64,000 bases of DNA. Origin: Longimicrobiales bacterium (GTDB lineage Bacteria > Gemmatimonadota > Gemmatimonadetes > Longimicrobiales > Gaopeijiaceae). Below the pieces are notes generated by a model. That model searched no databases and was not told the origin of the DNA. It saw nothing but the letters and a program-made list of their open reading frames with translations. The translations under genes were made by a program, and so were the position numbers. The DNA is taken from NCBI GenBank assembly GCA_963664435.2, contig CAXXKM010000002.1, positions 1,024,001 to 1,088,000 on the forward strand, given 5' to 3'. Of this stretch, positions 3,382 through 50,800 are shown in pieces. Numbering within the stretch: the stretch's first letter is position 1; each line of letters starts with the position of its first letter.

Positions 3382-3385
3382 GCCG

Positions 3386-4534: not shown

Positions 4535-4538
<4 letters not shown>
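4014..4538 (-). CDS. actD: Alternative complex III subunit ActD (DUF3341)
   Basis: MSTQAGLL start overlaps the actC stop; YSPLP, DWPLVTGGKP and IAFEMAVLF; two TM helices. Confidence 0.85.
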
Positions 4539-5911
<1,373 letters not shown>

Positions 5912-5963
5912 CCTTCTCCTGGACGCGTCTCCGCCGGCCAGCGGGCCGGAGGGCGCCCTGCTT

Positions 5964-8972: not shown

Positions 8973-9060
8973 GTGTGCTCGCTTCTCACTGGTTTCCCGC
9001 TCGTGGTCATGGGCTTCGCGTTCTCGCTTCCGGCGGTGGCTGCTCATGACTCCCGCTCGC

Positions 9061-9633: not shown

Positions 9634-9732
9634 GAAGCGCGCGGTTCCTTGGCGAGTGGAGGTTGCGGGAATGGTTCGCGCCGTTCGCATCCGGCGGCGA
9701 CGGAAACACGCGGCCCATGTAGTTCGGGCCGC

Positions 9733-28050: not shown

Positions 28051-28069
28051 GCCAATCAGGAGAAGAACC

Positions 28070-33501: not shown

Positions 33502-33547
33502 GCGTCGGGATGCCGCCGGTTTGCGGGAGGGCCGTCCGTCGCGGCGC

Positions 33548-35079: not shown

Positions 35080-35325
35080 GTGAGCGACATTCAGGAGCGA
35101 CGCGTCGGAGACCTTCTGATCCAGATCGACCGAAACCTTTGCGTGGGATTCGGCGACTGCATCGAGGCCGCGGAAGCCGCCTTCGAGCTGGACGACGAGG
35201 GGGTCGCGGTGTTCAGGGAAAGCATCGACGGGGTGGACCGCGAGACCCTGCTGGCCGCCTGCGACGAGTGTCCCGTGGACGCCATTGCCGTAATCGATTC
35301 CGACGGAAGGCAGCTCCTGCCCTGA
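35080..35325 (+). CDS. Small ferredoxin, probably [3Fe-4S]
   Basis: IDRNLCVGFGDC...CDECPVDAI; the second Cys of CxxCxxC is replaced by Phe. Confidence 0.88.
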   Translation: MSDIQERRVGDLLIQIDRNLCVGFGDCIEAAEAAFELDDEGVAVFRESIDGVDRETLLAACDECPVDAIAVIDSDGRQLLP

Positions 35326-35347
35326 CCCGCCGCCCGGGCCCGCGACC

Positions 35348-36256
35348 ATGAGGAAGATCCGCACCTACCACGAGGTGGAGTCGCAGACGGGCGACCTGCT
35401 CGTGGATCAGATCAGGGGCCAGCGCCAGCGACTCGAGAGCCGGCTGGCCGGGATTCGCAGCCTGATCGCCGTCGGGAGCGGCAAGGGGGGGGTCGGCAAG
35501 AGCCTGGTGACGGCCAACCTGGCTGCCGCCCTCGCCGGAGAGGGCTGCTCGGTGGGCGCGCTGGACGCGGATCTGAACGGCCCGTCCCTGGCCCGCATGC
35601 TGGGCGCGTCCGGGGAGCGGCTGGTGGATGGGGCCGAGGGCGTGGTTCCGGCGCCGGCCGCCTGCGGTGTCCGTGTCATGTCGATGGAGTTGCTGCAGAA
35701 CGACGCCGACGCTCCCCTGCGCTGGCGCGCGCCCTCCGGCGACGGCTTCCTGTGGCAGAGCTCGATCGAGACCGGAGCCGTGCGGGAGTTTCTGTCGGAT
35801 GTGGCGTGGGGCGAGCTCGACTTCCTTCTGATGGACCTGCCGCCGGGCACCGACAAGATGGATCGCATCTTCCAGCTGCTGCCGGGGCTCGGGACCCTGC
35901 TTCTGGTGACGACTCCGTCCGAGATGTCGCGCCGGGTCGTGGCCCGGGCGGCGTGCCTGGCGCGCGAGCAGGGAATCCCGCAGGTGGGGCTGGTGGCGAA
36001 CATGACCGAATACGTCTGTCCGTGTTGCGGTCACTCGGATCCCCTCTTTCCCGGGGACGGCGTCACGCGCCTGGCGGGAGCCACCGGTCTGGAGATCTGG
36101 AGCCGGATCCCCTTCGATCCCCGTCTGGGCGAGGGATCCGACCGCGGGGTCCCCGCCGTGATCGCCGGAGGGGATTCGCCGGGCGCGCGCGCCTTCCGGG
36201 CGCTGGCGGGGAGGCTCGCCGATCTCGGGCGGACCGGGAAGGAGGATGGCCGATGA
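35348..36256 (+). CDS. Mrp/NBP35/ApbC Fe-S carrier ATPase
   Basis: SGKGGVGKS, LDADLNGPS, WGELDFLLMDLPPG and NM...CPCC. Confidence 0.9.
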   Translation: MRKIRTYHEVESQTGDLLVDQIRGQRQRLESRLAGIRSLIAVGSGKGGVGKSLVTANLAAALAGEGCSVGALDADLNGPSLARMLGASGERLVDGAEGVVPAPAACGVRVMSMELLQNDADAPLRWRAPSGDGFLWQSSIETGAVREFLSDVAWGELDFLLMDLPPGTDKMDRIFQLLPGLGTLLLVTTPSEMSRRVVARAACLAREQGIPQVGLVANMTEYVCPCCGHSDPLFPGDGVTRLAGATGLEIWSRIPFDPRLGEGSDRGVPAVIAGGDSPGARAFRALAGRLADLGRTGKEDGR

Positions 36257-36705
36257 AATTTCTCTGCATCCAGTGCGATCACATCATGGCCTTCGCGGAA
36301 CGCCAGCTGCCCGGGGACGGCACCCTGGCGGCGGTGTTCGAGTGCTCGGCGTGCGGGCGCGACATCGCCATGCTCACCAACCCCATGGAGACCCAGCTGG
36401 TGAGCAGCATGGGCATCGAAATCGGGGGCCGGACGGTGCCCGAGCAGCCCATGGAACTGGTGCGGGGCAACCTTGCGGGGGGGCGGCAGGACGCGTTTGT
36501 GGAGGAGGAGCCCCCCGCTCCCGCCCGTCCCGGCCGGGTCGAGTGGACCCCGGATGCGGTGGACCGGCTCGGCCGGGTGCCGTCCTTCGTGCGCGGCATG
36601 GTCAAGCGCATCTATACCGACTACGCCCGCGAACGAGGCATCGACCGCATGACCCCGGAGGTCATGGACACGGCACGCTCGGATCTGGGGCTGGAGGGAA
36701 TGTGA
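36253..36705 (+). CDS. Zn-ribbon (CxxC...CxxC) plus C-terminal PCP_red-like domain protein
   Basis: MKFLCIQC...FECSAC...LTNPMETQ; C-terminal WTPDAVDRLGRVPSFVRGMVK. ATGA overlap and GGAGG RBS. Confidence 0.85.
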   Translation: MKFLCIQCDHIMAFAERQLPGDGTLAAVFECSACGRDIAMLTNPMETQLVSSMGIEIGGRTVPEQPMELVRGNLAGGRQDAFVEEEPPAPARPGRVEWTPDAVDRLGRVPSFVRGMVKRIYTDYARERGIDRMTPEVMDTARSDLGLEGM

Positions 36706-37154
36706 CCGATTCGAGCCGGGACCTCGCCCCGCGGCAGGCGCGGCCCGCCGGGCGGGAGCAGGACCGGGGGCCCGCCCCGGGACACGGCGATGCGCGCGCC
36801 CGCAAATTCCGGCAGGCCGCCTTCTGGTATCTGCACGTCGGGCTGCTCTACGAGGCGGCAGTGGTCGCCATGTGGCGCAACGGGCTCGTCAACCCGATCC
36901 GCGGGCCCATCGTGCTCTGGCTCCTGCTTGGAGCTGCGATCGTGGCGCTGGTCTTCTGGGGCCTCTGGTTCCGGCGGAGCGTGTGGCTGGCCCGCGGGAT
37001 CTGGGGGCTGCACGCGCTGCGCCTGCCGAGCATGATCGAAGGCGCGTTCCTGCCCGGACCCGATGCAGCGCTGCCCGCAGCCTTCTACCTGACGGCCATC
37101 GTCGTCATCGTCATCAACCTGTGGCTGCTGGCGCGCGCCGGATGGGATCTCTGA
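36702..37154 (+). CDS. Small membrane protein (about 4 TM)
   Basis: GTGA overlap with the upstream stop; hydrophobic segments; ends ARAGWDL. Confidence 0.75.
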   Translation: MTDSSRDLAPRQARPAGREQDRGPAPGHGDARARKFRQAAFWYLHVGLLYEAAVVAMWRNGLVNPIRGPIVLWLLLGAAIVALVFWGLWFRRSVWLARGIWGLHALRLPSMIEGAFLPGPDAALPAAFYLTAIVVIVINLWLLARAGWDL

Positions 37155-37224
37155 CCCGGGGCGGGGCGATTTCCCGGAGTGGATCCGGGCCTTCACGCGC
37201 CGTCCCCGCACACCTCCGGGACGT

Positions 37225-37254
37225 TTGACATCGATCAGCGATTTCCGGTATAAT
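37225..37254 (+). promoter_or_regulatory. Consensus sigma70 promoter with an overlapping FNR/CRP-like box
   Basis: TTGACA-N18-TATAAT; TTGAC-atcg-ATCAG (37225-37238) versus TTGAT-N4-ATCAA. Confidence 0.7.
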
Positions 37255-37496
37255 CTGCCCGGCTCCGCAAGGGCCGACACATGGGATCTGAACGAGCGGG
37301 CCCGGGCGCCCGCTCATGTTATGTACGCCGACCTATCGGCGACCGCCTTCGGGGACTTGGCCCTGCCTGACTTGCCGAACCAAGTGGACTGTCTCGTGCT
37401 CTCTTCTTGCCTTGGCGGACATGCGTTCGCCGCTCGCGAGTTGCATGGCTGAACCACACGCGCCAGGTCCCTCGAAAACCCCCAATCGAGGCAGCC

Positions 37497-39614
37497 ATGT
37501 ACCGTGAGATCTTTGTTCCAGTGGATAACTCGCCCTGGTCGGACTGGGCGGTGGATCGCGCCATCGAACTTGCTTCGCGCTCCGACGGAAGCGTCACCGG
37601 AAACCACGTGTACGCCGCGCGCCTGCACGACATCCGCTTCCGCCAGCTCGAGACGGGCCTTCCCGCCCAGTTTCAGACCGAGGCCGAGATCAAGCGGCAG
37701 CGCAAGATCCACGACAAGCTGATCGAGAAGGGGCTGCAGCTCATCTCCGATTCGTTCCTGGACCAGGTCGACCGCCGCTGCCAGGATGCCGGCGTGCCTC
37801 TGACGCGCCAGCTGCTGGAAGGCATCAACTACGAAGAGATCGTGAGCGAGGTGAACTCGGGCGAGGGCCACCTGCCGAGCCTCATCGGCTTCGATCCCAA
37901 CATCGCCTCGAGCTACGACGGGGGCGACAAGGTGCGCAGCGACGTGCGCCTGGGCGCGGACGGCCGCATCGTCGCGGAGGACGAGGAGCACGACGAGAAG
38001 CTGGCCGGATCGAGCGGCCGCGACTACGACCTGATGGTCATCGGGGCGCACGGCATCGGCCATCAGCCCTTCTCCCAGCTCGGCGGCGTGGTGGCGCGCG
38101 TGCTTCAGAAGGTGGACAAGGACGCCTTGGTGGTGCGGAACGAGCGGCCGCTCGCCGGGGGCAGCTTCATGGTGTGCGTGGACGGCTCCGCGTACAGCTA
38201 CAAGGCCATGCGCCTCGCCCTGGAGATGGCCTCGGAGTACGGGGCGAAGCTCTACGTGGGCTCATCCTTCGATGTCGAGTACCATCACGCGGTCTTCGGC
38301 AACATCAAGGACGTGCTCTCGGTGCAGGCCTCGAAGATCTTCAAGTTCGAGGAGCAGGAAGAGCTTCACAACAACATCATCGACAAGGGACTGCTGAAGC
38401 TCGCCCAGGCCAACGTGAAGCGGGCGCGCATCATGGCGGAGGAGTATCCGGAGGTCGAAGTCGAGACCCAGGTGCTCATCGGCAAGCCCTTCCAGGTCAT
38501 CCTGCAGTGGGCCGAGGAAGTCGACCCCGGCCTGCTCATCCTCGCGCGCCACGGCGCGCACCGCATCGACGGCACGGACCTGGGGTCCCAGGCGCACAAT
38601 CTGCTGCGGCAGTCGGACGCGAACATCCTCCTCATCGGCACCACCGACGTTCGTCCGGAGGAGATTCCCTGGATCGAGGAAGACGGCGAGATGGGGCTCG
38701 AGTGGGCTCCGGAGGCGGAGGTCCGCATCCTGCGCGTCCCGCCCTTCGCTCTCGGCATCGCCCGCAAGGCGGTGGAGGAATACGTGCTGGAGAACTGGCG
38801 CCCGCGGGAGGAGGCGTCCGAGCCGTCCGCCAACGGATCCGGCGCCGGCGGAGCGCGCGCAAATGGTGCCTCGGGCGCGCACGCGAACGGGTCCGACGGA
38901 GCCGAACCGCCGCTCCTGGAGCCCGGGCGCGACACCGGCGCCACCCTGCCCATGGTGACGAGCGAGTGGCTGGACGAGGCGATCGCCAAACTGCTTCCCA
39001 CCCACATGCAGCTCATCATGGGGATCGGCACGGCCGAGGAGCTCGCGCTCGCCGAAGTGAAGGCGGGGGAGGCCATGAAGCGCACGGTGGTCGAGGGCAA
39101 CGACGCCGACCCCGTGCCTGCCAGCCCGACCATCGAAACGACGTGCCCTTATACCGGGCACGTGCATGAACGGGTGCGCACGGCGGCCGACCCGGTGGTG
39201 TGGACCGAAGAGGCCTTCGACCGCCTGGGCGCGGTGCCGCTCATCGCCCGCCCCCTGGCGCGCAACACGGTGGAGCGCTTCGCCCGCGACCACGATTTCT
39301 GGCGCATCACCACGCGGGTCATGGACGAGAACAAGCAGGCCATGATGGAGGCGGACACCTTCGACACCGACACCATGCTGGTGATGTTCCGGGAGCTGCA
39401 GACCAAGCAGCTCAAGGCCGCGGCCGAAGGCGTCGACGGGCTGACCCCGGAAATGCGCAAGTTCATCGAGGAGGCCAAGGCTTCGGGCGTGACCCGCTGC
39501 CCGATCCGCGACGTGGCCGAGCAGGCCGACGACTGCCCGGTCGACTTCAAGACCGTCAGCCCCGCCGACGCGAAGGCCGCCGTCGAGCAGTTCATGCGCC
39601 GGGAAGAGGCCTGA
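37497..39614 (+). CDS. Tandem universal stress protein with two PCP_red-like domains and Cys-Pro motifs
   Basis: IFVPVDNS...DLMVIGAHG; MVCVDGS...LLILARHG..LGS; WAPEAEVRILRVPPF and WTEEAFDRLGAVPL; CPY, CPI and CPV. Confidence 0.88.
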   Translation: MYREIFVPVDNSPWSDWAVDRAIELASRSDGSVTGNHVYAARLHDIRFRQLETGLPAQFQTEAEIKRQRKIHDKLIEKGLQLISDSFLDQVDRRCQDAGVPLTRQLLEGINYEEIVSEVNSGEGHLPSLIGFDPNIASSYDGGDKVRSDVRLGADGRIVAEDEEHDEKLAGSSGRDYDLMVIGAHGIGHQPFSQLGGVVARVLQKVDKDALVVRNERPLAGGSFMVCVDGSAYSYKAMRLALEMASEYGAKLYVGSSFDVEYHHAVFGNIKDVLSVQASKIFKFEEQEELHNNIIDKGLLKLAQANVKRARIMAEEYPEVEVETQVLIGKPFQVILQWAEEVDPGLLILARHGAHRIDGTDLGSQAHNLLRQSDANILLIGTTDVRPEEIPWIEEDGEMGLEWAPEAEVRILRVPPFALGIARKAVEEYVLENWRPREEASEPSANGSGAGGARANGASGAHANGSDGAEPPLLEPGRDTGATLPMVTSEWLDEAIAKLLPTHMQLIMGIGTAEELALAEVKAGEAMKRTVVEGNDADPVPASPTIETTCPYTGHVHERVRTAADPVVWTEEAFDRLGAVPLIARPLARNTVERFARDHDFWRITTRVMDENKQAMMEADTFDTDTMLVMFRELQTKQLKAAAEGVDGLTPEMRKFIEEAKASGVTRCPIRDVAEQADDCPVDFKTVSPADAKAAVEQFMRREEA

Positions 39615-41062
39615 TGGCCGATTCGCCCACCGCCGTTCTCCCCACTCTGGGGCGCGACGGCTTCTCCGAACCCTCGGCCACCCCCTCCCTCCGCTGGGTC
39701 GCGGAAGGGGTGTCGGCGGATTCGGGGGCGGCGCCGGGGCTCCCGCACATCATCGCGTGGAACCTCACCCGGCGCTGCAATCTGGAGTGCGCGCACTGCT
39801 ACATCTCCGCGGGATCCTGGCACCTGGCCGACACCGAGCTCTCCACCGCGGAGTGCCATCGCGTGCTCGATCAGGTTCTGGAGGTCAACCCGAACCCGGT
39901 GCTCATCCTCTCGGGTGGGGAACCGCTTCTGCGCGACGACCTGGAGGAGATCGCCGCCAGGGCGAGCGCCGGCGGGGCCACGGTGGTGGTGGGCACCAAC
40001 GGCACCCGCCTCAGCGACGCGCGCATCGAGTCGCTCATGGAAGCGGGGGTGAAGGGGGTCGCGGTGAGCGTGGACTCGCTGGTCGACAGCTACCACGACC
40101 GCTTCCGCCACGGGTCGGGGGCGCTCTCCGACACCCTGGACGCGGTGGACCGGCTGGCCGCGCACCGCCTGGACTTCATCGTCCAGACCAGCGTCACCCG
40201 GGGCAACCGGGGGGAAGTGGCGGATATCGCGGCCTGGGCGGAGAGCCGGGGCGCGGTTTCGTTCAACCTGTACTTTCTGGTGCCCACCGGGCGCGGGGAG
40301 CGCATGCAGGGCCTCGCCCCGGAAGAGAACGAGGCCGTGCTTGCCGAACTCGTGGAGCTCGAGCGCGAGTACCGGGGCCGAATGATGGTTCGCTCCAAGT
40401 GCCAGCCGCAGATCATGCGCCACGTGATCGAGGGCGGGGAGGAGTCGCCGCTGCTGAACTACGGCACCCGCTGTCCGTGCGGCGTCCACTACTGCCGCAT
40501 CACCCCGGAGGGCAAGGTCACCCCCTGTCCCTACACGCCGGTGGTCGCGGGCGACCTCACCACCACCCCGTTCCGCCAGGTCTGGGAGTCGTCCCCGGTC
40601 TTCACCCGGTTGCGCCGGGGCGATCTGGGCGGGCGCTGCGGGCGCTGCGAGTACCGCGCCGTGTGCGGGGGCTGCCGCGCGCGCGCCCACGCCCTTACCG
40701 GCGACCTGCTCGGGCCGGACGACTCCTGCGCGTACGATCCGGCCGGCGACCGGGAGGTCATCGAACCGCGGCGCCAGGTCGTGTACGGCGACGACACCGT
40801 CCCCGGCCTCCCCTGGACCGAAGAGGCGCGCGCGCGCCTCTCAGTCGTGCCCAGCTTCGTGCGCGGAGTGGTGTCGAATCGCGTCGAGTCGTTCGCGCGC
40901 AAGCGAGGGTACACGATGGTGACCGCCAGGGTCATGGCGGAGGTGCGCCGCGGCATGCCGGTTGATTTCTCCAGGCGACTCCCTTTCTTCCTACGCAACC
41001 AGATGTCCGCGGCCGCATCGCGCGACGGAATTCCGGAGGAGGACGATGCTCCCCGGAGTTGA
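39614..41062 (+). CDS. Radical SAM/SPASM enzyme (AhbC/AhbD/NirJ-like) with C-terminal PCP_red-like domain
   Basis: WNLTRRCNLECAHC, SGGEPLLR, CPCG...PCPY, CGRCEYRAVCGGCRARA...DDSC and WTEEARARLSVVPSFVR; TGATG coupling. Confidence 0.9.
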   Translation: MADSPTAVLPTLGRDGFSEPSATPSLRWVAEGVSADSGAAPGLPHIIAWNLTRRCNLECAHCYISAGSWHLADTELSTAECHRVLDQVLEVNPNPVLILSGGEPLLRDDLEEIAARASAGGATVVVGTNGTRLSDARIESLMEAGVKGVAVSVDSLVDSYHDRFRHGSGALSDTLDAVDRLAAHRLDFIVQTSVTRGNRGEVADIAAWAESRGAVSFNLYFLVPTGRGERMQGLAPEENEAVLAELVELEREYRGRMMVRSKCQPQIMRHVIEGGEESPLLNYGTRCPCGVHYCRITPEGKVTPCPYTPVVAGDLTTTPFRQVWESSPVFTRLRRGDLGGRCGRCEYRAVCGGCRARAHALTGDLLGPDDSCAYDPAGDREVIEPRRQVVYGDDTVPGLPWTEEARARLSVVPSFVRGVVSNRVESFARKRGYTMVTARVMAEVRRGMPVDFSRRLPFFLRNQMSAAASRDGIPEEDDAPRS

Positions 41063-42938
41063 CCAGACCTCGGAGGGAAATGTGCCCAGCAGTCCGTGGA
41101 TGAATCCGCCCGTGCATCGAGAGCGAGGAGGCGCCGCCAGACCCGGCCTGACCTGGTGCGCGCGCGTCGGTCCACTTCTCCTGGTTGCGGCGCTCGCCCT
41201 TTTGGTGATGGCCGAGCCCGCATTCGCCCAGGTTCCCGCCGGCCGCGACTACGGCGACTTCCCGATCATCGGCGGGCGGGCGGCGGTGTGGATCGCGGCC
41301 CAGGTGCACCTGCTCTTCGCCGCGTTCGTGCTGGGCGTGCCCATGTTCGCGGTGGTCACCGAGGCCATCGGCATGTTCGGCGGCGACGACCGCTACGACA
41401 AGCTGTCCAAGGAGTTCACCCGGCTCCTTCTGGTCGCATACTCCGCGACCGCCATCTGGGGCGGCATCCTGCTCTTCCTGCTGATCACCATCTACCCCAC
41501 GCTCTTCAGCTATCTCGCGCAGATCTTCAACCTGTCGATGTGGATCTACGTGGGGCTCTTCTTCTTCGAGTCCTTCACGCTGTACCTGTACTACTACGGC
41601 TGGGACCGCTGGAAGAAGGGGCGCGCCAAGTGGTTCCACTGGGGCCTGGGCATCGCCCTGAACGTGTGGGGCACGATCGTCATGTTCATCGCCAACGGCT
41701 GGCTGACCTACATGATGAGCCCGCCGGCCGAGGTCACGGTCGACACGGCCCCCCAGATGGTGAATCTGTGGATGGCGCTCACCAACGCGACCTGGATGCC
41801 CATCAACATCCACCGGCTGATCGCCAACGTCGTGTTCGGGGGGGCGGTGGTCGGCGCCTACGCCGCCTACCGCTTCCTGGCGGCAAAGAGCGACGAGGAG
41901 CGGGCCCACTACGACTGGATGGGCTACGTGGGCAACATGATCGCCATCGGCGCGCTCATCATCCTGCCCTTCGCGGGCTACTGGCTGGGCCGGGAGATCT
42001 ACGAGTTCAACCAGCAGATGGGCATCACCATGATGGGCGGGTTCATGAGCTGGCTGTGGATCATCCAGGCCTTCCTGATCGGGGTGCTGTTCCTGGCGGG
42101 CAACTATTACCTGTGGGTGGGGATGGGCCGGATACCCGGGGCGGAGCGCTTCATGCCCTACACGAAGTACATGCTGGCGGTGCTCATCGTGGGCGTGATC
42201 GTGTGGGCGACGCCCAACACCATGATCGCCAGCCGCGAGGAGTTCGCGGCGATGGGCGGCACGCACCATCCCTTCCTGAGCGTCCTCGGGCTGATGAGCG
42301 GCAAGAACACTGCGGTCAACTTCATGATCCTGACCACCTTCCTGTCGTTCCTGCTCTACCGGCGCGCCAACAAGGAACCGGTGGTGCCCTGGGCGCGCAC
42401 GGGCACGATCGTGCAGGGGGCGATCTTCATCGTGGCCTCCGCGATCGTGCTGTTCTACGGGATCTACGGCTACATGGTGCCGACCCTCGTGCGCATCGGC
42501 TTCTCGGTGTACCAGGTACTTACGGTGCTCGCGTGCATCATCGGCGTGATCACCATCGACATGCTGATGTTGCGCGGCGCCACCTCCAGAGGCGAGATCC
42601 AGTGGGGCCGCATGCCGGCTCGGTCCCAGTACGCGCTCTTCATCCTGGCGGTGACGTTTACCTGGCTGATGGGCCTCATGGGCTTCGCCCGCAGCGGCAT
42701 CCGCCAGCACTGGCACGTCTTCGAGGTCATTCGCGACACCAGCCCCTGGGCGGCCACCCCCGCGCTGGGATATTCGTCGGTGGTCATCTCCGCCTGCGTG
42801 CTCATCTTCTTCGGGCTGGTGGCCTTCATCTTCTGGCTCGGCTCGCTGGCCGAGCAACCCGTGATTTCGTCGGTTGGGCAGGCCGCGGCCCCCGGCGGGA
42901 TGCAGAGCGAACTTCAGCCGGCACCCAGCGAGGGATAG
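41046..42938 (+). CDS. Cytochrome bd subunit I (CydA)-like membrane protein lacking the Q-loop
   Basis: QVHLLFAAFVLG, FFFESFTLYLYYYGW, FIANGWLTYMMSP, NIHRLIAN and GFARSGIRQHW; GGAGGAGG RBS. Confidence 0.85.
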   Translation: MLPGVDQTSEGNVPSSPWMNPPVHRERGGAARPGLTWCARVGPLLLVAALALLVMAEPAFAQVPAGRDYGDFPIIGGRAAVWIAAQVHLLFAAFVLGVPMFAVVTEAIGMFGGDDRYDKLSKEFTRLLLVAYSATAIWGGILLFLLITIYPTLFSYLAQIFNLSMWIYVGLFFFESFTLYLYYYGWDRWKKGRAKWFHWGLGIALNVWGTIVMFIANGWLTYMMSPPAEVTVDTAPQMVNLWMALTNATWMPINIHRLIANVVFGGAVVGAYAAYRFLAAKSDEERAHYDWMGYVGNMIAIGALIILPFAGYWLGREIYEFNQQMGITMMGGFMSWLWIIQAFLIGVLFLAGNYYLWVGMGRIPGAERFMPYTKYMLAVLIVGVIVWATPNTMIASREEFAAMGGTHHPFLSVLGLMSGKNTAVNFMILTTFLSFLLYRRANKEPVVPWARTGTIVQGAIFIVASAIVLFYGIYGYMVPTLVRIGFSVYQVLTVLACIIGVITIDMLMLRGATSRGEIQWGRMPARSQYALFILAVTFTWLMGLMGFARSGIRQHWHVFEVIRDTSPWAATPALGYSSVVISACVLIFFGLVAFIFWLGSLAEQPVISSVGQAAAPGGMQSELQPAPSEG

Positions 42939-42947
42939 GGAAGGCAG

Positions 42948-43748
42948 ATGCTAAAGACCAACCTGAGTATCCTGGCGGTGGTGATCGGCTGCCTGGGCGT
43001 GTTCACCTGGGTCGCCAACGCCATTCCGCAGATTCAGTCGGACGTACCGGAGGATCTGGTGTTGTCGGACGACGTCAGCCCCGAGGAGCTCATTGCGGCG
43101 GGCGAGGAACTGTATAACGGCGGAGGCGGCTGCACGGCCTGCCACGGTCTGGGCGAGCGCGCCCCGAACCTGCTCACGGACCACGCCGGAACCGGGCTCA
43201 TCGGCGAGCGCTGCGCGAACCGCGTGGCGGGGCAGGACTGCAAGCAGTACCTGCATACCTCGCTGGTCGACCCCAACGCCTACCTGGTGGAAGGGTTCGC
43301 GCCGATCATGCTGGATGCGAGCCGCACCCTCTCCTCCGTGCAGATCTGGGCGCTGGTGGCCTACCTGGAGTCCCTGGGAGGGGATGTCACGGTTACGGGA
43401 GCGGATTTCGCGGATGGCGGCGACGCGGCGCCCGCCGGCGGCGCGATGGCGACTGCGGCCGCCGCTCCGGCGCTGGGTCCGACCGGGGACCTCGACCCCG
43501 AAGCGCTTCTGACCCAGTACACCTGCAGCACCTGCCACACGCTCACCGGGCCCTCGCCGCTCGGGCCGTCCTTCGAGGGCATGGGTGCTCGCCTGACCGC
43601 CGATGAAATCCGGACGGCCATCCTCGATCCCACTGCGTCTGCGGCCGAGGATTTCGAGGCGATGCTCGGGATTATGCCCCCGATCTTCGGGAACATCCCG
43701 GGGGCCCAGCTCGAGGCGATCGTGCAGTTCCTCGCATCGCAGAGATAG
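42948..43748 (+). CDS. Membrane-anchored diheme cytochrome c
   Basis: N-terminal TM; CTACH...PIM and CSTCH...GIMP. Confidence 0.9.
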   Translation: MLKTNLSILAVVIGCLGVFTWVANAIPQIQSDVPEDLVLSDDVSPEELIAAGEELYNGGGGCTACHGLGERAPNLLTDHAGTGLIGERCANRVAGQDCKQYLHTSLVDPNAYLVEGFAPIMLDASRTLSSVQIWALVAYLESLGGDVTVTGADFADGGDAAPAGGAMATAAAAPALGPTGDLDPEALLTQYTCSTCHTLTGPSPLGPSFEGMGARLTADEIRTAILDPTASAAEDFEAMLGIMPPIFGNIPGAQLEAIVQFLASQR

Positions 43749-43776
43749 GAGACGCGCCGGTGAGGGAGGAGAATCG

Positions 43777-44580
43777 ATGAACACCAAGCCCTGGAAGCAT
43801 CCGCTGGGCCAGGCGGCCATCGTCGTGTTTCTGGCGTACCTCGTGTTCGAATGGGGGATCTGGCTCCTGCCGCCCCTCTTCGGGGTCGCCAGCGCCCCGG
43901 TCCCCGCCACCGTGGTTCTGCAATACATGGGAACCGTCGTGGTGGGCGTGCTGATCTGGGTCAGCGACTCGGAGGAGCGCTGGAAACAGTTCAAGGCGCC
44001 GATCCACCGGGTCATGGTGGATCCGCGCCAGAAGGTCCTGCGCACGGCGCTCATGGTCACCATTCCCCTGCTGGTCGCCTTCATGACCTTCGACCGGGTG
44101 CGCCCCACGGTCTCGGCGCCGGCGGCGCTGCGTTCGGTACACCCGGCGCCTCCCGGACAGATCGACTTCCGGGGGGAGACCATGGTCCTCAACGGGCTCG
44201 AGAACCCGCTCCGGCACGAGGGCGACTTCAACGAGCACTACGAGGAAGGCAAGAGGGTCTACGTCCAGAACTGCATGCCCTGTCACGGCGACGCGCTGGA
44301 CGGGCAGGGCCACTTTGCGAGCGCCTTCAACCCCGCGCCCCTCAGTTTCCAGGATCCCGGGACCATCGTACAGCTGACGGAGAGCTTCGTCTTCTGGCGC
44401 ATCGCCAAGGGCGGTCCCGGGCTCCCGCGCGAAGCGACGCCGTGGGACTCCGCGATGCCCGCATGGGAGGATTCGCTGACGGCCGAGGAAATCTGGCAGG
44501 TGATCATCTACCTCTACGAACAGACCGGCTGGGAGCCGCGCACCTGGGAGGAAGAGGGCGCCGAAGGGGAGGAGCACTGA
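43777..44580 (+). CDS. Membrane-bound monoheme cytochrome c (about 3 N-terminal TM)
   Basis: CMPCH, FWRIAKGGPGLP and WDSAMPAW; GGAGGAG RBS. Confidence 0.9.
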   Translation: MNTKPWKHPLGQAAIVVFLAYLVFEWGIWLLPPLFGVASAPVPATVVLQYMGTVVVGVLIWVSDSEERWKQFKAPIHRVMVDPRQKVLRTALMVTIPLLVAFMTFDRVRPTVSAPAALRSVHPAPPGQIDFRGETMVLNGLENPLRHEGDFNEHYEEGKRVYVQNCMPCHGDALDGQGHFASAFNPAPLSFQDPGTIVQLTESFVFWRIAKGGPGLPREATPWDSAMPAWEDSLTAEEIWQVIIYLYEQTGWEPRTWEEEGAEGEEH

Positions 44581-46184
44581 TGCGGGCGCGAGCGAGCAGT
44601 CCACGGGCTGCCATGATACCCGGTTTCGTATTCGCAGCGGCAATGGCGTGCGCCGGCTCGGCGCCCCTGACCGCCCAGGAAGAGAACGCGCTCGGGCGCG
44701 ACGTCTACGACCGCTGGTGCGCGTCCTGCCACGGATACGAAGGTCTCGGCGACGGCTACGCGGCGGAGTACATGCTCCCGCGGCCGCGCGACTTCACCCA
44801 GGCGCTCTACCAGATCCGCACCACCCCGAGCGGGCAGCTGCCGACCGACGACGACATCATGCGGGTCATCAACGAGGGCATGCCGGGCACGACCATGCCC
44901 GGATGGGAGGAAGAGCTCAGCCTCGAAGAGCGGCTGGCGCTCGTCGACTACCTGAAGAGTTTGTCCCGGTTCTTCGCCACTGGCGAGGCCCCCGAGCCCA
45001 TGACCTTCAGCAGCCCGACCCGGGCGACCGAGGAAGCCCTGGCCGACGGACGGGAGGTCTACGAGCTCATCGAGTGCAATCGCTGCCACGGCGCCGACGG
45101 CCGGGGCGACGGCACCTCCTCCCCGACGCTGGTGGACGACACCGGCATGCCCATCTACTCGGTGGACCTGACCGAGAACTGGTACTTCAACGGCGGCGGC
45201 ACGGTGGAGGACATCTACCGGCGGCTGCGCACCGGCCTGGACGGAACGCCGATGCCGTCGTTCACCGACCTCATCGACGCGGGCGTCATCACCGACGAAC
45301 AGCTGTGGAACCTCTCCCACTACGTGCGCAGCTTCGCTCCCGAGGACCCGCCGGGCATCACCGAGGTGATCCGGGCCGGCCTGGTGGAGGATGCGCCCCT
45401 GCCGCAGGGCGTCGACGACCCGATGTGGGAGTCGGCGGAGGCGTTCTACATTCCGATGGGCGGGCAGATCATCCAGAGCCCGCGCTGGTTCGTCCCGCAG
45501 GTGGCCGGGCTGTGGGTGCGCGCGCTGCACGACGGCGGCGAGCTCGCGGTGCACGTCTCCTGGAGCGACCACTCCGAGAGTCCCGATACCGCGTGGGCCG
45601 ACTTCCAGGCCCGGGTCCTGTCGGCGGTGGGACCCGACGAGGGCGACATGGAACCGGGTCCGCGACCCGACGGCCTGTACGTCCAGTTCCCCATGGAAAT
45701 CCCCGAGGGAATGGACAAGCCCTACTTCCTCCTGGGAGATCCCCTGGAGCCCGTGTACCTGTGGCACTGGGAGAGCACGGCCGGCGCAGCGCACGAGGCG
45801 GACGCCCGCGGACTGGGCACCACGGCCCCTCAGGGCGACGCGAGCCAGTCGCTTGCGTCGGAGGCGGCGTTTTCGGCGGGGCGCTGGGCTGTTATGTTCC
45901 GCCGCGCTCTCGAGACAGAGGATCCGGGGGACCTGCAGTTCCGCGTCGGCGAGCCGGTGCCGGTTGGCTTTGCCGCCTGGGACGGTGACAACGGAGAATC
46001 GGGGTCCCGGGGCTCGATCAGCTCATGGCATTACATTTTCCTGCAGGAACCGACGCCAGCCACCGTGGTGGTCGCGCCGCTCATCGCGACGCTGCTCACC
46101 GCCGGGCTGGGCGTCCTGGTTGTGGCCCGGGCCCAGAGGCGCGTGCGGGAAGGCGCCGAAGGCGCGGATGAAGGAAACGCGTAG
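44580..46184 (+). CDS. Diheme cytochrome c fused to an ethylbenzene-dehydrogenase-gamma-like (DOMON) domain
   Basis: Signal peptide; CASCH..PRPRDFT..TMPGW; CNRCH..TPMPSF; WSD, QFP, FRRAL and FAAWDGDNGE; C-terminal TM. Confidence 0.88.
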   Translation: MRARASSPRAAMIPGFVFAAAMACAGSAPLTAQEENALGRDVYDRWCASCHGYEGLGDGYAAEYMLPRPRDFTQALYQIRTTPSGQLPTDDDIMRVINEGMPGTTMPGWEEELSLEERLALVDYLKSLSRFFATGEAPEPMTFSSPTRATEEALADGREVYELIECNRCHGADGRGDGTSSPTLVDDTGMPIYSVDLTENWYFNGGGTVEDIYRRLRTGLDGTPMPSFTDLIDAGVITDEQLWNLSHYVRSFAPEDPPGITEVIRAGLVEDAPLPQGVDDPMWESAEAFYIPMGGQIIQSPRWFVPQVAGLWVRALHDGGELAVHVSWSDHSESPDTAWADFQARVLSAVGPDEGDMEPGPRPDGLYVQFPMEIPEGMDKPYFLLGDPLEPVYLWHWESTAGAAHEADARGLGTTAPQGDASQSLASEAAFSAGRWAVMFRRALETEDPGDLQFRVGEPVPVGFAAWDGDNGESGSRGSISSWHYIFLQEPTPATVVVAPLIATLLTAGLGVLVVARAQRRVREGAEGADEGNA

Positions 46185-46218
46185 ACATCGAAGTTCAAAT
46201 AGCACCACGGAGGAAGGA

Positions 46219-47097
46219 ATGAGAGACCTGTTCGGAGGCGGCCGGGCCACGGTGATGGCGACGGCGGCGATGTTCGCGATCGCGTGCGGTGGCGGCGGTG
46301 GAAGCGAGGCCGGCGGCGGCATGGAGGAAGAGGCCGCTGGCGAGGAGATGGCCTCTCCCGTCGACATGGCCACCGCGGGCGGCATCAACGCGATGGTGAT
46401 GTTCGAGGGCATGGCGCCCGAAATGGATGTGATCGACATGGCGTCCGAGCCCGATTGCGCGGCCCGGTACACCGACACCCCGATGTCCGAGGAAGTCGTG
46501 GTGGGTGACGGTGGCGGACTCGCCAACGTCTTCGTCTACGTGAGGGAAGGCGTCGACGCGGGCATGAACTTCCCCACGCCCGGCGGCGCGGTGGTGATGG
46601 ACCAGATCGGCTGCCGCTACGTCCCCCGGGTCGTGGGCGTGCAGTCGGGGCAGGACCTCACCTTCCGCAACTCGGACGGCCTGCCGCACAACATCAACGC
46701 CTCCCCCAGCACCAACCGCGGCTTCAACGTCAGCCAGCCGGTGAACATGGACACCAACCGCAGCTTCCCCATGGCCGAGGTGATGGTCCCGGTGCGCTGC
46801 GACGTGCACGGCTGGATGAGCGCCTACGTGGGCGTGCTGGATCACCCCTTCCACGGGGTCACGGACATGGCGGGAGGCGCCGACCTGGGCATGCTCCCGC
46901 CCGGTGAGTACGTGGTCGAGGCCTGGCACGAGCGCTATGGAACGCAGACCGCCAGCGTCACCGTCACCACCGCCGAGACGGCGATGGTGAGCTTCTCCTT
47001 CTCGGAGGCGATGGCGGCCAACGCCGTGGTGCCGATGGGCGAGCCGATCGATCCCCACGGTCCCGGAGCCCACGCTCTCGCTCCCGAGACCCATTAG
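46219..47097 (+). CDS. Met-rich cupredoxin-like lipoprotein with a carboxypeptidase-regulatory-like domain
   Basis: Lipobox AIAC; DQIGCRYVP, NSDGLPHN, CDVHGWM and PPGEYVVEAWHE. Confidence 0.82.
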   Translation: MRDLFGGGRATVMATAAMFAIACGGGGGSEAGGGMEEEAAGEEMASPVDMATAGGINAMVMFEGMAPEMDVIDMASEPDCAARYTDTPMSEEVVVGDGGGLANVFVYVREGVDAGMNFPTPGGAVVMDQIGCRYVPRVVGVQSGQDLTFRNSDGLPHNINASPSTNRGFNVSQPVNMDTNRSFPMAEVMVPVRCDVHGWMSAYVGVLDHPFHGVTDMAGGADLGMLPPGEYVVEAWHERYGTQTASVTVTTAETAMVSFSFSEAMAANAVVPMGEPIDPHGPGAHALAPETH

Positions 47098-47211
47098 ACA
47101 CGAGCCGCCGAGGACGGGCGGGCGTCTCCCCGCGGGGGCGCCGGCCCGGCACGCGACCGGGTACACAGCCCGGCCGGCATCACTACCGGCAGCGAGCAGG
47201 AGAACACCGAC

Positions 47212-47913
47212 ATGAGCTGGATGCTCCCCGAAAGCTTTTCCACCTTTGGGCCGGACGTCGACTTTCTGTACTACGCGATCCTCGTGGTAACGGGAGTGGT
47301 CTTCGTGATCACCGAGGCGCTCCTGGTCTATTTCGTCATCCGCTACCGGCGCCGAGACGGACAGAAGGCCACCTACATCCACGGGTCGACGAAGGCGGAG
47401 ATCATCTGGACTACCGTCCCCTTCATCGCCGTGCTGGGGCTGGCGTTCATCAGCATTCCTTCGTGGAACATGATGAAGAACCCGGACAGCGTGCCCGCCG
47501 ACGCCCTCGACTACATCGTCAACGCGAAGCAGTTCGAATGGGAGATCACCTACGCCGGCGCGGACGGGGTCACCGGCACCGCCGACGACATCTCGACGAT
47601 CAACATCATGCACGTCCCGGTGAACCAGGCCGTCAACATCACCCTCCGGTCCGAGGACGTGCTTCACTCCTTCTTCCTGCCCGAGATGCGGGTGAAGCAG
47701 GACGCCGTGCCCGGGATGGACATCACCGTCTGGTTCGAGGCGACGGCCGCGGGCGCGTATCCCATCGGTTGCGCCGAACTCTGCGGCAATCTGCATACGA
47801 CCATGGGCGGGACCCTCAACGTATACGAGGCGGCCGACTTCGAAGCGTGGGTCGCGTCCCAGAGCGCGGACGCCGACGACGCCGACGACGCTGACGATCA
47901 GGAGGACCAGTAG
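47212..47913 (+). CDS. coxB: Cytochrome c oxidase subunit II
   Basis: Two TM, EIIWT, QFEW, DVLHSF, KQDAVPG and CuA motif CAELCGNLHTTM; no fused cytochrome c. Confidence 0.95.
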   Translation: MSWMLPESFSTFGPDVDFLYYAILVVTGVVFVITEALLVYFVIRYRRRDGQKATYIHGSTKAEIIWTTVPFIAVLGLAFISIPSWNMMKNPDSVPADALDYIVNAKQFEWEITYAGADGVTGTADDISTINIMHVPVNQAVNITLRSEDVLHSFFLPEMRVKQDAVPGMDITVWFEATAAGAYPIGCAELCGNLHTTMGGTLNVYEAADFEAWVASQSADADDADDADDQEDQ

Positions 47914-49674
47914 ATGGACGCGCACGCGCACGCCCACGAGATGCCGTGGATTCGGCGCTACATCTTCTCGACCGACCACAAGACCATCGCCATCCAGTTC
48001 CTCCTGATGAGCCTGTTCTTCCTGGTCGTGGGGGGATTGCTGGCGATGATGATCCGGTGGCAGCTGGGCTTCCCGAGCGAGCCCATGCCCGGAGGCATGC
48101 TCCTGCCCGACGAGATGATGGCGCCCACGCCCGACGGGGCCATCATGCTGCCCGAGTTCTACAACTCGCTGGTCACCATGCACGGCACCATCATGATCTT
48201 CTTCGCGATCATGCCGCTGCTGGTGGGGGTCTTCGGCAACCTGCTGATCCCGCTTCAGATCGGTGCCGACGACATGGCCTTCCCGCGCCTCAACATGGCG
48301 TCATTCTGGATGGCGTTCCCGGCGGGGCTGCTGATGCTCGCGAGCTTCGCGGTCGAAGGGGGCGCGGCCGGCGCGGGCTGGACGTCCTACGCCCCGCTCA
48401 GCGCGAGCGGTGAGTACACCGGCGTCTACCTGGGGCAGCAGCTCTGGCTGATCAGCCTCACCATCCTGGGCTTCGCGTCGCTGGCGGGCGCGGTCAACTA
48501 CATCACGACCATCATCAACATGCGCGCGCCGGGGATGACCTGGTTCCGGTTGCCGCTGGCCACCTGGGCGCTCTTCATCACCGCGATCCTGATCCTGCTG
48601 GCGATTCCGATCCTGGCGGGCGCGCTGATCATGCTGCTCTTCGACCAGACCATCGGGACCGGGTTCTTTCTGCCGGCCAGCGACGGCGAGCCGCTCCTCT
48701 GGCAGCACCTGTTCTGGTTCTTCGGACACCCGGAGGTCTACATCCTCATCCTGCCCGCCATGGGCATCACCTCCGACGTCCTGGCCAACGGCGCGCGCAA
48801 GCCCGTCTTCGGCTACCACGCCATGGTGCTGGCGATCGTCTCCATCGCCTTCCTGTCCTGGATCGTGTGGGGGCACCACATGTTCCAGAGCGGGATGAAC
48901 CCGATGCTCGGCACCACCTTCATGATCACGACCATGGTCATTGCGGTGCCGTCGGCCATCAAGGTGTTCAACTGGCTGGGGACCATCTACAAGGGGAATA
49001 TTCACCTGCACACCCCCATGCTGCACGCCCTGGGCTTCGTGTCGATGTTCATCATCGGCGGGCTCTCCGGCGTGTTCATGGCCTCGACCCCGGTCGACGT
49101 CTACATCCACGACACCTACTTCATCGTGGCGCACATCCACTACGTGCTCTTCGGCGGCAGCCTGTTCGCGATCTTCGCCGGCGTCACGTTCTGGTACCCG
49201 AAGATGTTCGGCCGCCTCATGAACGAGAAGTGGGGCAGGATTCACTTCGTGCTCACCCTGATCCTGTACAACCTCGTGTTCTGGCCCATGCACTCGATCG
49301 GGATCCAGGGACACATGCGGCGCATCTACGATCCCACGCAGTACGAGTTCCTGCAGCCCCTGCAGCCCATCAACCAGTTCATCACGGTGGCCGTCTTCGC
49401 ACTGGTGGCGGTTCAGGCGATCTACGCCCTCAACTTCATCATCAGCATCTGGAAGGGGAAAAAGGCCGGCAACAACCCGTGGAAGGCCAACTCCCTGGAG
49501 TGGACGGTGCCGTCGCCGCCGCCGCACGGAAACTTCGAAATGGTGCCCATCGTGTACCGCGGGCCCTACGAGTACTCCGCGCCGGATGTGGAAGAGGACT
49601 ACTGGTTGCAGGATGCGCCCCCGCCCAGCGAGACGGTCGCGCCTGTTCCCGAACCCCAGCCCGTGGCGGACTAA
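47914..49674 (+). CDS. coxA: Cytochrome c oxidase subunit I, A1 type
   Basis: TDHK, TMHG, DMAFPRLN, WFFGHPEVY, WGHHMF, PSAIK, HDTY, VAHIHY and MRR motifs. Confidence 0.97.
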   Translation: MDAHAHAHEMPWIRRYIFSTDHKTIAIQFLLMSLFFLVVGGLLAMMIRWQLGFPSEPMPGGMLLPDEMMAPTPDGAIMLPEFYNSLVTMHGTIMIFFAIMPLLVGVFGNLLIPLQIGADDMAFPRLNMASFWMAFPAGLLMLASFAVEGGAAGAGWTSYAPLSASGEYTGVYLGQQLWLISLTILGFASLAGAVNYITTIINMRAPGMTWFRLPLATWALFITAILILLAIPILAGALIMLLFDQTIGTGFFLPASDGEPLLWQHLFWFFGHPEVYILILPAMGITSDVLANGARKPVFGYHAMVLAIVSIAFLSWIVWGHHMFQSGMNPMLGTTFMITTMVIAVPSAIKVFNWLGTIYKGNIHLHTPMLHALGFVSMFIIGGLSGVFMASTPVDVYIHDTYFIVAHIHYVLFGGSLFAIFAGVTFWYPKMFGRLMNEKWGRIHFVLTLILYNLVFWPMHSIGIQGHMRRIYDPTQYEFLQPLQPINQFITVAVFALVAVQAIYALNFIISIWKGKKAGNNPWKANSLEWTVPSPPPHGNFEMVPIVYRGPYEYSAPDVEEDYWLQDAPPPSETVAPVPEPQPVAD

Positions 49675-49750
49675 CCCGATGCCCGTCTTCGTTTCGTCGG
49701 CGGAGCCGCATTCTCTCCAGTGACCTGGAACTTCAGGAGATAGCTGACGC

Positions 49751-50386
49751 ATGAGCCAAGCAGCCGCATCGACAGCCGACCGGCACCCCATGCCGGGGAT
49801 GATGGTCTACAACGTCAAGCTGGGAATGTGGATCTTCCTGCTGTCGGAAGTGATGTTCTTCACGGCCCTGATCGGGTCGTACATCATCCTGCGATTCGCC
49901 CACCCGGATCATTTCGCCGAGCCCGGAGCGGTGTTGAACGTGCCGCTCACGGCCTTCAACACCTTCGTCCTGATCTGTTCGAGCGTGTCGATGGTCAAGG
50001 CTTACGCCGCGATCACGCAGGGCGATCAGAAGGGGCTCAAGTTCTGGCTCCTGATAACGATTCTCCTCGGCACCTTCTTTGTCGGGGTTCAGGTGGTCGA
50101 GTACATCCTGTTGGCCCAGGAGGGATTCGTTCCCGTCGCGGAGCTGTACGGCGTCGCGCACGAGATCGAGGGAGCCGCCCTGTACGGCGCCACCTTCTAT
50201 ACGATGACGGGATTCCACGGCACCCACGTCACGATCGGAATCCTGTGCATGTGGTTCGTGCTGTACCGGGCGTGGCAGGGCAAGTACTCGGCTGACAACT
50301 ACGGAGCGGTGGAGATCGTGGGTCTCTACTGGCACTTCGTCGACCTGGTCTGGATCCTTCTGTTCACCATCGTATACCTGATCTGA
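49751..50386 (+). CDS. coxC: Cytochrome c oxidase subunit III
   Basis: GMWIFLLSEVMFF, TGFHGTHV and LYWHFVDLVW. Confidence 0.95.
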   Translation: MSQAAASTADRHPMPGMMVYNVKLGMWIFLLSEVMFFTALIGSYIILRFAHPDHFAEPGAVLNVPLTAFNTFVLICSSVSMVKAYAAITQGDQKGLKFWLLITILLGTFFVGVQVVEYILLAQEGFVPVAELYGVAHEIEGAALYGATFYTMTGFHGTHVTIGILCMWFVLYRAWQGKYSADNYGAVEIVGLYWHFVDLVWILLFTIVYLI

Positions 50387-50429
50387 TCATCGGGGCGGGC
50401 CGCCGCTCGAAACCCAAGGAGATACCCGG

Positions 50430-50696
50430 ATGGCAGGCAACGGAGAACAACCCAGATATTTCCTGATCTGGTTCGTACTGTTCGTTCTGACGATGGCGGA
50501 GGTGGGATACGCATTCCTCGCCCTGCCCCAGTGGCTGCTCGCCACAGGCTTGATCCTGATGGCGGTTTGGAAGGCTCTGCTGGTGGCGCTCTACTACATG
50601 CACCTGAAATACGAGCCCAAGCGACTCTGGCTTCTGGCCGCCAGCCCGTTGCCGCTGGCGGTGATTCTGGTGATCGCCGTTCTGACGGAGTTCTGA
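50430..50696 (+). CDS. coxD: Cytochrome c oxidase subunit IV family protein
   Basis: LTMAEV and KALLVALYYMHLKYE; three TM. Confidence 0.9.
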   Translation: MAGNGEQPRYFLIWFVLFVLTMAEVGYAFLALPQWLLATGLILMAVWKALLVALYYMHLKYEPKRLWLLAASPLPLAVILVIAVLTEF

Positions 50697-50758
50697 TCGG
50701 CTGACGGCGAGGAGGGCCGCCGGCCGAGCGAGCCGCGCCGCTCTTCCAACAGCCACGC

Positions 50759-50800
50759 AAAGCCCTGACCGTGCCCGGTGCGGCGCGGTCAGGGCTTTCT
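50759..50800 (+). terminator. Intrinsic terminator ending the oxidase cluster
   Basis: 17-bp stem AAAGCCCTGACCGTGCC / GGCGCGGTCAGGGCTTT (one G-U pair), 6-nt loop, ending TTTCT. Confidence 0.75.

Follow-up and report, generated by a model that had tools for sequence, protein, structure and literature searches.

A CydB-less bd-like module encoded with an aa3 oxidase and a radical SAM cassette in a Longimicrobiales bacterium

We analysed a stretch of 64,000 nucleotides (the window) from a Longimicrobiales bacterium of the Gemmatimonadota (assembly GCA_963664435.2, contig CAXXKM010000002.1, positions 1,024,001 to 1,088,000), in which a run of 15 plus-strand genes at 35080-50696 encodes a CydA-like membrane protein with three cytochromes c, an A1-type haem-copper oxidase (coxBACD) and an upstream cassette that includes a radical SAM enzyme (rSAM). 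We observed that this cluster is real, that its linkage is kept in many Gemmatimonadota and that it recurs in other phyla. The core of a cydA-like gene and three cytochrome genes was already known; here it is joined to an aa3 oxidase and to the rSAM cassette, in a host without NXR. The reading we prefer, to which we give a probability of about 0.45, is that the CydA-like protein acts beside the A1 aa3 oxidase as an oxygen reductase of the OR-N group that has no CydB and is fed by cytochrome c, that both are supplied by alternative complex III (ACIII), and that the cassette tailors or inserts the haem of the bd-like protein.

Gene order and conservation of the cluster

The genes follow the order ferredoxin, Mrp, Zn-ribbon/PCP_red protein, small membrane protein, USP/PCP_red protein, rSAM/PCP_red enzyme, CydA-like protein, three cytochromes c, cupredoxin-like lipoprotein and coxBACD. 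An earlier note, made from the letters of the sequence, had described this same-strand order together with five CxxCH motifs in the cytochromes (2+1+2) and a closing terminator, and all of these were found again with open reading frames, Pfam and a folded hairpin. The terminator-like hairpin (50759..50800, + strand; -36 kcal/mol for the folded segment 50756-50805) was not listed by a simple terminator scan because its T-tract is short. Six of the 14 gene junctions overlap or abut (-4, -4, -1, -17, -1 and 0 nt), while the remaining junctions measure 9-114 nt save for a single 342-nt gap (37155-37496) ahead of the USP gene. Pfam matches to the cluster proteins included ferredoxin, ParA/NUBPL (Mrp), PCP_red in three proteins, Usp, Radical_SAM with SPASM, Cyt_bd_oxida_I (E 9e-21), cytochrome c, EB_dh and COX1-4. 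The best 120 matches to homologues were 75-94% identical, and those with a name came from Longimicrobiales or Gemmatimonadota.

Conservation within the phylum was measured in 201 Gemmatimonadota genomes, including the source genome and one flagged as unpublished (G155), which enters the counts only. A CydA-like ortholog (at least 71% identity) was present in 59 of the 201, hereafter the module genomes. We fetched the loci of 57 of the 58 foreign orthologs and of three paralogues, 60 in total. The full order usp-rSAM-cydA-c1-c2-c3-lipoprotein-coxBACD was observed in 48 of the 57 ortholog loci, and the other nine stop at contig ends. Matching presence profiles within the phylum overstate the support because these genomes are kin and not independent.

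For other phyla we surveyed the best 80 of at least 588 confirmed stretches; judged by record title, 71 lay outside Gemmatimonadota, and 32 of these had long flanks on both sides. Unbroken cydA-c1-c2-c3 was observed in all 32 long loci, and within 10 kb on either side we found c1, c2 and c3 in 32, the USP gene in 21, rSAM in 16, Mrp in 16, the lipoprotein in 14 and coxA in 11. The module adjoins cox genes in Methylomirabilota/Rokubacteria, in Rhodothermales/Bacteroidetes and in single gammaproteobacterial and Dehalococcoidia records. The linkage of USP, rSAM, Mrp and coxBACD, for which the earlier note had proposed a neighbourhood survey, is thus conserved in Gemmatimonadota and recurs beyond them.

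The bd-like protein and its redox partners

The CydA-like gene (41046..42938, +) encodes 630 amino acids (aa), or 612 aa from the ATG at 41100, at which our residue numbering starts, and its product matches PF01654. It is 39% identical over 582 aa (E 2e-141) to a protein from a Nitrospira sp./Ca. Manganitrophaceae cluster, and the two have H70, Y150, E157, H180, H238, H390, M399, M524, M527 and H539 in common. An AlphaFold2 (AF2) model built from 57 sequences (pLDDT 89.8, pTM 0.87) contained 14 long helices counting the N-terminal one, and simple hydropathy gave 11. Similarity to solved bd oxidases was limited to the first ~250-300 residues, within which H70 (equivalent to His19/21) aligns with a histidine of 5doq_A. 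H70, E157 (Glu107/108 equivalent), H238 (His186 equivalent), M399 and R535 were invariant in 69 of 69 Gemmatimonadota rows of the alignment, and the same five positions were kept in 74-76 of 74-77 rows from other phyla. A further set of residues specific to the family (H180, H390, K402, M524, M527, H539, E88 and E299) was invariant or nearly so. For these equivalences we assumed the E. coli bd positions to be 186, 393 and 445, and those to Met393 and Glu445 came from helix order and a weak alignment.

Neither a quinol-binding Q-loop nor a CxxCH motif was found in the sequence, alignment or model of this subunit, and the model placed extra helices at the location of the Q-loop. A cydB gene was not found in the 96%-complete source genome (the search control was positive in 9 of 14), which holds one CydA homologue. 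With CydA homology including His19, about 14 helices, no Q-loop or CydB, and full-length homology to the Nitrospira protein, its sequence places the CydA-like protein in the OR-N1/N2 type, in agreement with the earlier note, which had pointed to CydA-like proteins of Nitrospirota and relatives that lack quinol-site residues. With neither cydB nor Q-loop found and a tyrosine at the Glu101 position, it is not a canonical quinol-oxidising cytochrome bd (qOR). Bd oxidase counts in Gemmatimonadota may include such proteins, because databases label them 'cytochrome bd quinol oxidase subunit I'. Three Gemmatimonadota genomes (L052, L053, L054) also carry a second bd-like gene, 51% identical, accompanied by three further cytochromes; rSAM and cox genes are missing from the vicinity of these second loci, and two are preceded by twin cupredoxin-like genes. 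Four further loci (L061, L064, L065, L067; about -8 to +6 kb from the match) contain two bd-like genes among reshuffled cytochrome, USP and cupredoxin genes, and are possibly OR-N1/N2 pairs.

The three cytochromes are a membrane-anchored dihaem protein, c1 (42948..43748, +; 2 CxxCH), a monohaem protein with N-terminal membrane helices, c2 (43777..44580, +; 1 CxxCH), and a dihaem protein of the alt_NxrC type, c3 (44580..46184, +; EB_dh E 3e-17), which carries an EbdC/NxrC-like DOMON domain and a C-terminal anchor. Natural CydA-c1 fusions were observed in 4 of 150 representatives. A complex of CydA(45-595) with c2(1-258) was predicted with a score of 0.73, against 0.00 for the best control, with contact agreement of at least 54% and partner pLDDT of at least 76. 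In our calibration 116 of 157 solved pairs attained this mark, as did 2 of 215 mismatched ones, counts that hold only roughly for CydA-c2 since self-built alignments were used. The predicted interface lies between residues 28-69 of c2 and residues 321-393 of CydA, which take the place of the Q-loop; the membrane helix of c2 is predicted to pack on helices 314-369 of CydA, the extra ones substituting for the loop. The prediction supports binding of c2, and together with the c1 fusions it makes it likely that the CydA-like protein and the cytochromes c form one complex, in line with the single unit that the earlier note had proposed.

In the EbdC-like domain of c3, Leu and Gly stand where EbdC and NxrC have Met and Lys (alignment to 2ivf_C and 7b04_C), the pair that we take to be the haem-b ligands of those proteins. 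Among 124 c3 homologues an in-register Met and Lys was observed in none, Met with Lys one residue earlier in 8, and Met/Met in 27. A haem b in this domain is doubtful because the ligand pair is absent from c3 and in register in 0 of 124 homologues, and by this pair c3 is not a haem-b subunit of the EbdC/NxrC kind.

Downstream lie a lipoprotein and the four cox genes. The lipoprotein (46219..47097, +) combines a type-1-copper-like motif with a carboxypeptidase-regulatory-like domain, and a sub-cut-off CarboxypepD_reg match was its only one in Pfam. The earlier note had called it a cupredoxin; its HN...CDVHGWM motif is preserved in 70 homologues, and its matches to plastocyanin and amicyanin in the PDB are weak (E of at least 0.06). 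CoxB (47212..47913, +; TIGR02866 above cut-off) has the CuA motif H...C-E-C-H-M and no fused cytochrome c, CoxA (47914..49674, +; COX1 E 4e-151) is an A1-type subunit I with GHPEVY, WGHHM, AHIHY and D/K-channel motifs, and CoxC (49751..50386, +; COX3) and CoxD (50430..50696, +; COX4_pro, TIGR02229 above cut-off) complete the set. Assignment to the A1 type follows the GHPEVY motif, six His ligands, the D- and K-channel residues and CuA in subunit II, and CoxA scored 634 bits against TIGR02891, just below the cut-off of 671. Two haem-copper oxidases are encoded in the source genome, the A1 enzyme here and a B-family oxidase at C3:1756447. In some relatives a second cox operon was observed just upstream of the cluster (L024, L029, L033, L035, L113, L126).

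A complete actA-B-C-D-E-F operon for ACIII (2083..9690, - strand; NrfD match, 5 CxxCH in ActA and 1 in ActE) lies in the same window, separate from the cluster and 25 kb away. We found ActC in 190 of the 201 phylum genomes, among them 58 of the 59 module genomes, and ACIII is the likely electron source for both oxidases. The count for the phylum is far above that of a KEGG annotation survey, which gives 'fewer than 10%' (PMC9426454). Cytochrome b of a bc1 complex was not found in the source genome; the idea that the module replaces a missing complex III was dropped, since this window encodes ACIII and so do 58 of 59 module genomes. Donation of electrons to the A1 oxidase, one of two roles offered for the module in the earlier note, is weakened because of this same distribution of ACIII. 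No Nar/Nxr-type alpha subunit (type II DMSO-reductase) scored above cut-off in the source genome (best 109 of 985 bits), and a role of the module as NXR anchor was rejected on this ground.

In 21 of the 71 non-Gemmatimonadota loci, mostly of an acidobacterial type (17 labelled as Acidobacteriota lineages), actE stands immediately ahead of cydA, and upstream of it actB was observed in 20 and actA in 15, the rest being cut by contig ends or undetected. The genes actC, actD and actF were not found in any of these 21 loci, and ActC is encoded elsewhere in all 21 genomes. We fetched ten of the regions with actC, and all ten read actC-actD-actF-lipoprotein-coxA-coxC-(coxD)-coxB, so that the lipoprotein goes with the cox genes and lies directly ahead of coxA in 10/10; in six of the ten, the genes converge on the rSAM end of the bd-like operon. 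One ACIII set is therefore divided in these genomes (L078, L079, L141-L150), actABE with the bd-like operon and actCDF with the cox operon, and because of this division we infer that ACIII, the bd-like module and the cox oxidase act as one system.

Under the preferred reading, electrons would pass from menaquinol through ACIII (ActA/ActE) to cytochromes c3, c1 and c2, then to a b558-like haem held by His238 and Met399, and on to the His70 haem as the site of O2 reduction. The copper lipoprotein would carry electrons to CoxB, and ACIII would feed a pool of cytochrome c and cupredoxin serving both the bd-like reductase and aa3. Several observations weigh against a bd-like oxygen reductase with its own cassette. 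Tyr150 replaces the first proton-channel glutamate (Glu99/101) in 145 of 146 CydA-like rows, and the position of the haem ligand Glu445 is Ser/Ala532, an equivalence taken from a weak alignment. The cassette is not universal, with rSAM present within 10 kb in 16 of the 32 long loci of other phyla and in 0 of 3 paralogue loci. A further high-affinity oxidase is not obviously needed because the genome already encodes the B-family enzyme. Members of the bd-like family are also known from anammox bacteria, which are strict anaerobes (PMC3578206), no assay of an OR-N enzyme was present in the literature examined, and the OR-N function is called unconfirmed (PMC10839748, PMC12342949).

The two lost glutamate positions are also consistent with a somewhat unlikely alternative, in which the module reduces no O2 and serves upstream of aa3 as an electron relay or quinol:cytochrome c oxidoreductase, a second and complex-III-like point of entry. 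The single gene run with coxBACD in most Gemmatimonadota loci and the cox adjacency in several other phyla fit such a relay, as do the 21 loci in which the module occupies the place where ActC/D/F would follow ActAB(E), and an ACIII-like or reverse-flow role has been proposed for the Nitrospina and Nitrospira homologues (PMC3578206, PMC6606698). However, ActC is present in nearly all phylum and module genomes and elsewhere in all 21 actABE-cydA genomes, and the Q-loop region is replaced, with its place predicted to be taken by c2. Replacement of ActC by the CydA-like protein in the acidobacterial loci is weakened by these ActC genes, grouped with cox in 10/10 regions, and was retained solely as part of the relay.

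A very unlikely alternative is that the bd-like unit removes nitric oxide (NO) or peroxide, shielding aa3 and Fe-S enzymes rather than conserving energy. The retention of the active-site histidine and one glutamate beside an altered proton channel, the homologues in anammox bacteria and the detoxification of NO and O2 by canonical bd oxidases (PMC10839748) would agree with this, but no direct evidence was found for it, no Nar/Nxr-type alpha subunit exceeded its cut-off in the genome, and the five-haem wire and the ACIII linkage suggest a role in the main flux.

The cofactor cassette and transcription of the cluster

The cassette opens with a single-cluster ferredoxin of 81 aa (35080..35325, +; Fer4_15 E 3e-9), a Mrp/ApbC-like Fe-S carrier ATPase of 302 aa (35348..36256, +; PF10609 E 1e-64, under the MrpORP and ApbC cut-offs) and a 150-aa protein with a Zn-ribbon of two CxxC, whose cysteines are conserved, and a PCP_red domain (36253..36705, +; PF08369 E 3e-14), each observed in 51 of the 57 ortholog loci. 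A small membrane protein of 150 aa (36702..37154, +) had no Pfam or NCBIfam match and was present in 26 of 57. These are followed by a 705-aa protein with tandem USP and two PCP_red domains (37497..39614, +; Pfam) and by a 482-aa AhbD/NirJ2-like radical SAM/SPASM enzyme with a C-terminal PCP_red domain (39614..41062, +), which scored 267 bits against both TIGR04055 and TIGR04545 (cut-off 500). All four PCP_red matches of the genome fall within the cluster. Related USP-PCP_red clusters are present in Nitrospirota and Pseudomonadota.

The rSAM ortholog was found in 59 of 59 module genomes, a set identical to that of the CydA-like protein across the 201 genomes, and the USP-PCP_red protein in 59 of the 201, of which 58 are common to the CydA-like ortholog. 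These profiles agree with the tie between the cassette and the CydA-like protein drawn in the earlier note. Among the 142 genomes without the module we observed one partial, 66%-identical rSAM match (G178, with USP present too) and otherwise homologues of 33-48% identity.

Ferrochelatase (HemH), ChdC and a HemY-like gene are encoded in the source genome at C1:489-496 kb, and AhbA/B were not found in a search of that genome. ChdC is present in 88 of the 201 phylum genomes and 54 of the 59 module genomes, and AhbA/B in 25 of 201 and, weakly, in one of 59. Against the AhbD-like genes of those Gemmatimonadota that carry AhbA/B, the rSAM shows 34-37% identity. A housekeeping AhbD, that is, a haem b synthase, is unlikely because ChdC is present and AhbA/B are absent, the TIGR04545 score also falling short, and this candidate was rejected. 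The match of its profile to that of the CydA-like protein suggests that the rSAM serves a dedicated task, the simplest candidate being the tailoring or insertion of haem, and it is a probable haem-tailoring enzyme. The ferredoxin is its likely electron donor. In the preferred reading Mrp would load Fe-S clusters onto the rSAM, the ferredoxin would reduce it, and docking of the partners would fall to the PCP_red domains they share.

The earlier note had stated that no cydB, ctaA, ctaB or sco gene lies in the window, and this holds for all 64 kb. Elsewhere in the genome we found ctaA (C2:956893), ctaB (C2:353665) and sco (C2:4147 and C2:63421), so the cassette was rejected as a stand-in for CtaA/CtaB/Sco. 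In 31 of 57 relatives ctaB lies inside the ~20-kb locus. As side observations, chdC follows the cox genes and ctaB, at a distance of up to about 11 kb from the cydA-like gene, in L023, L027, L028, L030, L032, L041, L042, L044, L047, L048, L051 and L057, and several acidobacterial loci have hemH or hemY upstream.

Ahead of the USP gene, the 342-nt gap contains a sigma-70-type promoter consensus, TTGACA-18-TATAAT (37225..37254, +; 12 of 12 positions), which, like the act operon, is absent from the earlier note. All 8 of the 8 loci from the same genus preserve the consensus, compared with 5 of the 44 others examined; the scan that found it, run at a loose threshold, gave 2 promoter-like sites against 1.5 expected. 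Because this internal promoter is conserved in the genus, the 15 genes are there probably split into two transcription units; the single run of genes described before stands, and a single transcription unit probably does not. An FNR-like box overlapping the promoter was dropped, being present only in this window and in 0 of 52 other loci.

Metatranscriptome contigs of relatives (four sponge/coral sets from three studies) covered 30 of 30 bins of 32500-52000 and spanned several junctions, the long pieces being mostly 88-97% alike to the window, while 20, 28, 24 and 17 of 30 smaller bins were touched in a neighbouring control stretch. Such contigs are no proof of single transcripts, may derive from DNA and come from stretches of unequal conservation, and the RNA evidence for expression of the cluster is weak. 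One contig (37053-37732) spans the internal promoter and speaks for some read-through, or for DNA.

On the minus strand and divergent from the cluster, Pfam confirmed hemA-hemB-hmuY (31832..34879), as the earlier note had it. We found hemA in 9 and hemB in 8 of the 60 Gemmatimonadota loci and hmuY in 27 of the 57 ortholog loci; the hemA/hemB linkage is lineage-limited. Recurrent neighbours of this kind, with chdC in 16 loci, hemH in 5 and hemY in 6, would suit the notion that the three blocks are merely co-regulated neighbours, with a cassette for general haem/Fe-S supply and no interaction between the bd-like protein and aa3. So would the internal promoter and the free reshuffling of block order between phyla, where coxA lay near the module in 11 of 32 long loci. 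We regard this as distinctly unlikely, since rSAM (59/59) and USP (58/59) track the CydA-like protein whereas ACIII (190/201) and ChdC (88/201) do not, a match that kinship inflates.

Among the other neighbours, a 318-aa membrane protein with an internal repeat (50925-51881, +) had no match in Pfam and NCBIfam searches; 26 of the 60 Gemmatimonadota loci have it too, to one side of the cluster or the other. By the appearance of their sequences, we take the genes at 24701-26362 (+) and 18230-20767 (-) to encode an ETF:quinone oxidoreductase-like flavoprotein and a Lon protease, and 26581-31334 (+) a MoxR/chelatase-like AAA ATPase with a VWA partner. Elsewhere in the source genome (G000), C3:1124000-1137000 and C3:1787000-1794204 are identical inverted duplications at the contig end, and the two sco matches are identical, which suggests repeats or assembly overlap.

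Relation to known systems and significance

Proteins of the OR-N1/N2 type are described with 14 helices, a retained His19, no quinol site and no CydB, and OR-N2 is often the sole cydA-like gene of its operon (Murali, Gennis & Hemp; bioRxiv 10.1101/2021.01.16.426971). The cluster protein is like them in each of these respects and differs from those described in being encoded with coxBACD and the rSAM/USP/Mrp cassette, in a host without Nar/Nxr. The four-gene core corresponds to TO_1 of Ca. Manganitrophus (10.1101/2021.11.15.468770), and a cluster of a bd-like oxidase, two cytochromes c and alt_NxrC is reported for Nitrospira, Nitrospina and Kuenenia (PMC3578206, PMC6606698). Those systems, which have the same core, are tied to nitrite or Mn oxidation, whereas here there is no NXR, the A1 oxidase is adjacent, and the EbdC-like domain lacks the Met/Lys haem-b pair of EbdC and NxrC. 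The earlier statement that the family is essentially uncharacterised holds as far as assays in the literature examined are concerned; the core itself had already been described as TO_1 and OR-N.

AhbD (TIGR04545) and NirJ2 (TIGR04055), the best NCBIfam matches of the rSAM, have its radical SAM and SPASM architecture in common; the rSAM differs by scores far under the cut-off, by its extra PCP_red domain and by a host with ChdC and HemH and without AhbA/B. Frequently, an oxygen reductase lies downstream of act genes, and OR-N5 occurs so in Nitrospirales (PMC12342949). Such ACIII-aa3 operons resemble the present case in the joint encoding of ACIII and an oxygen reductase, but the acidobacterial-type loci split ACIII and this window has it as a separate operon 25 kb off. 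In the available text of a study of Gemmatimonadota oxidases the cluster is not mentioned (PMC9426454). No publication dealing with the rSAM/USP/PCP_red cassette or with the divided ACIII turned up in a search that left most subscription journals outside, and such operon contexts may appear in the supplements of Murali et al.

In Nitrospira, Nitrospinota and Mn-oxidisers, the terminal oxidases are presumed to be bd-like proteins of the OR-N type. For this family the compact cluster gives a candidate set of subunits, a predicted docking partner, invariant residues and a candidate maturation cassette, which may be required for heterologous expression of a bd-like complex. A bolder reading, which we consider unlikely, is that ACIII, the bd-like module and aa3 form a super-system with two different O2-reducing ends, in which an undescribed bd-like active site holds a haem modified by the PCP_red-tagged rSAM machine; Tyr150 would stand in for the channel glutamate, and His180, His390, His539, Met524, Met527 and Lys402 would form an extra metal or haem site. 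If true, this would amount to a new respiratory cofactor pathway, one that would extend to the presumed terminal oxidase of Nitrospira.

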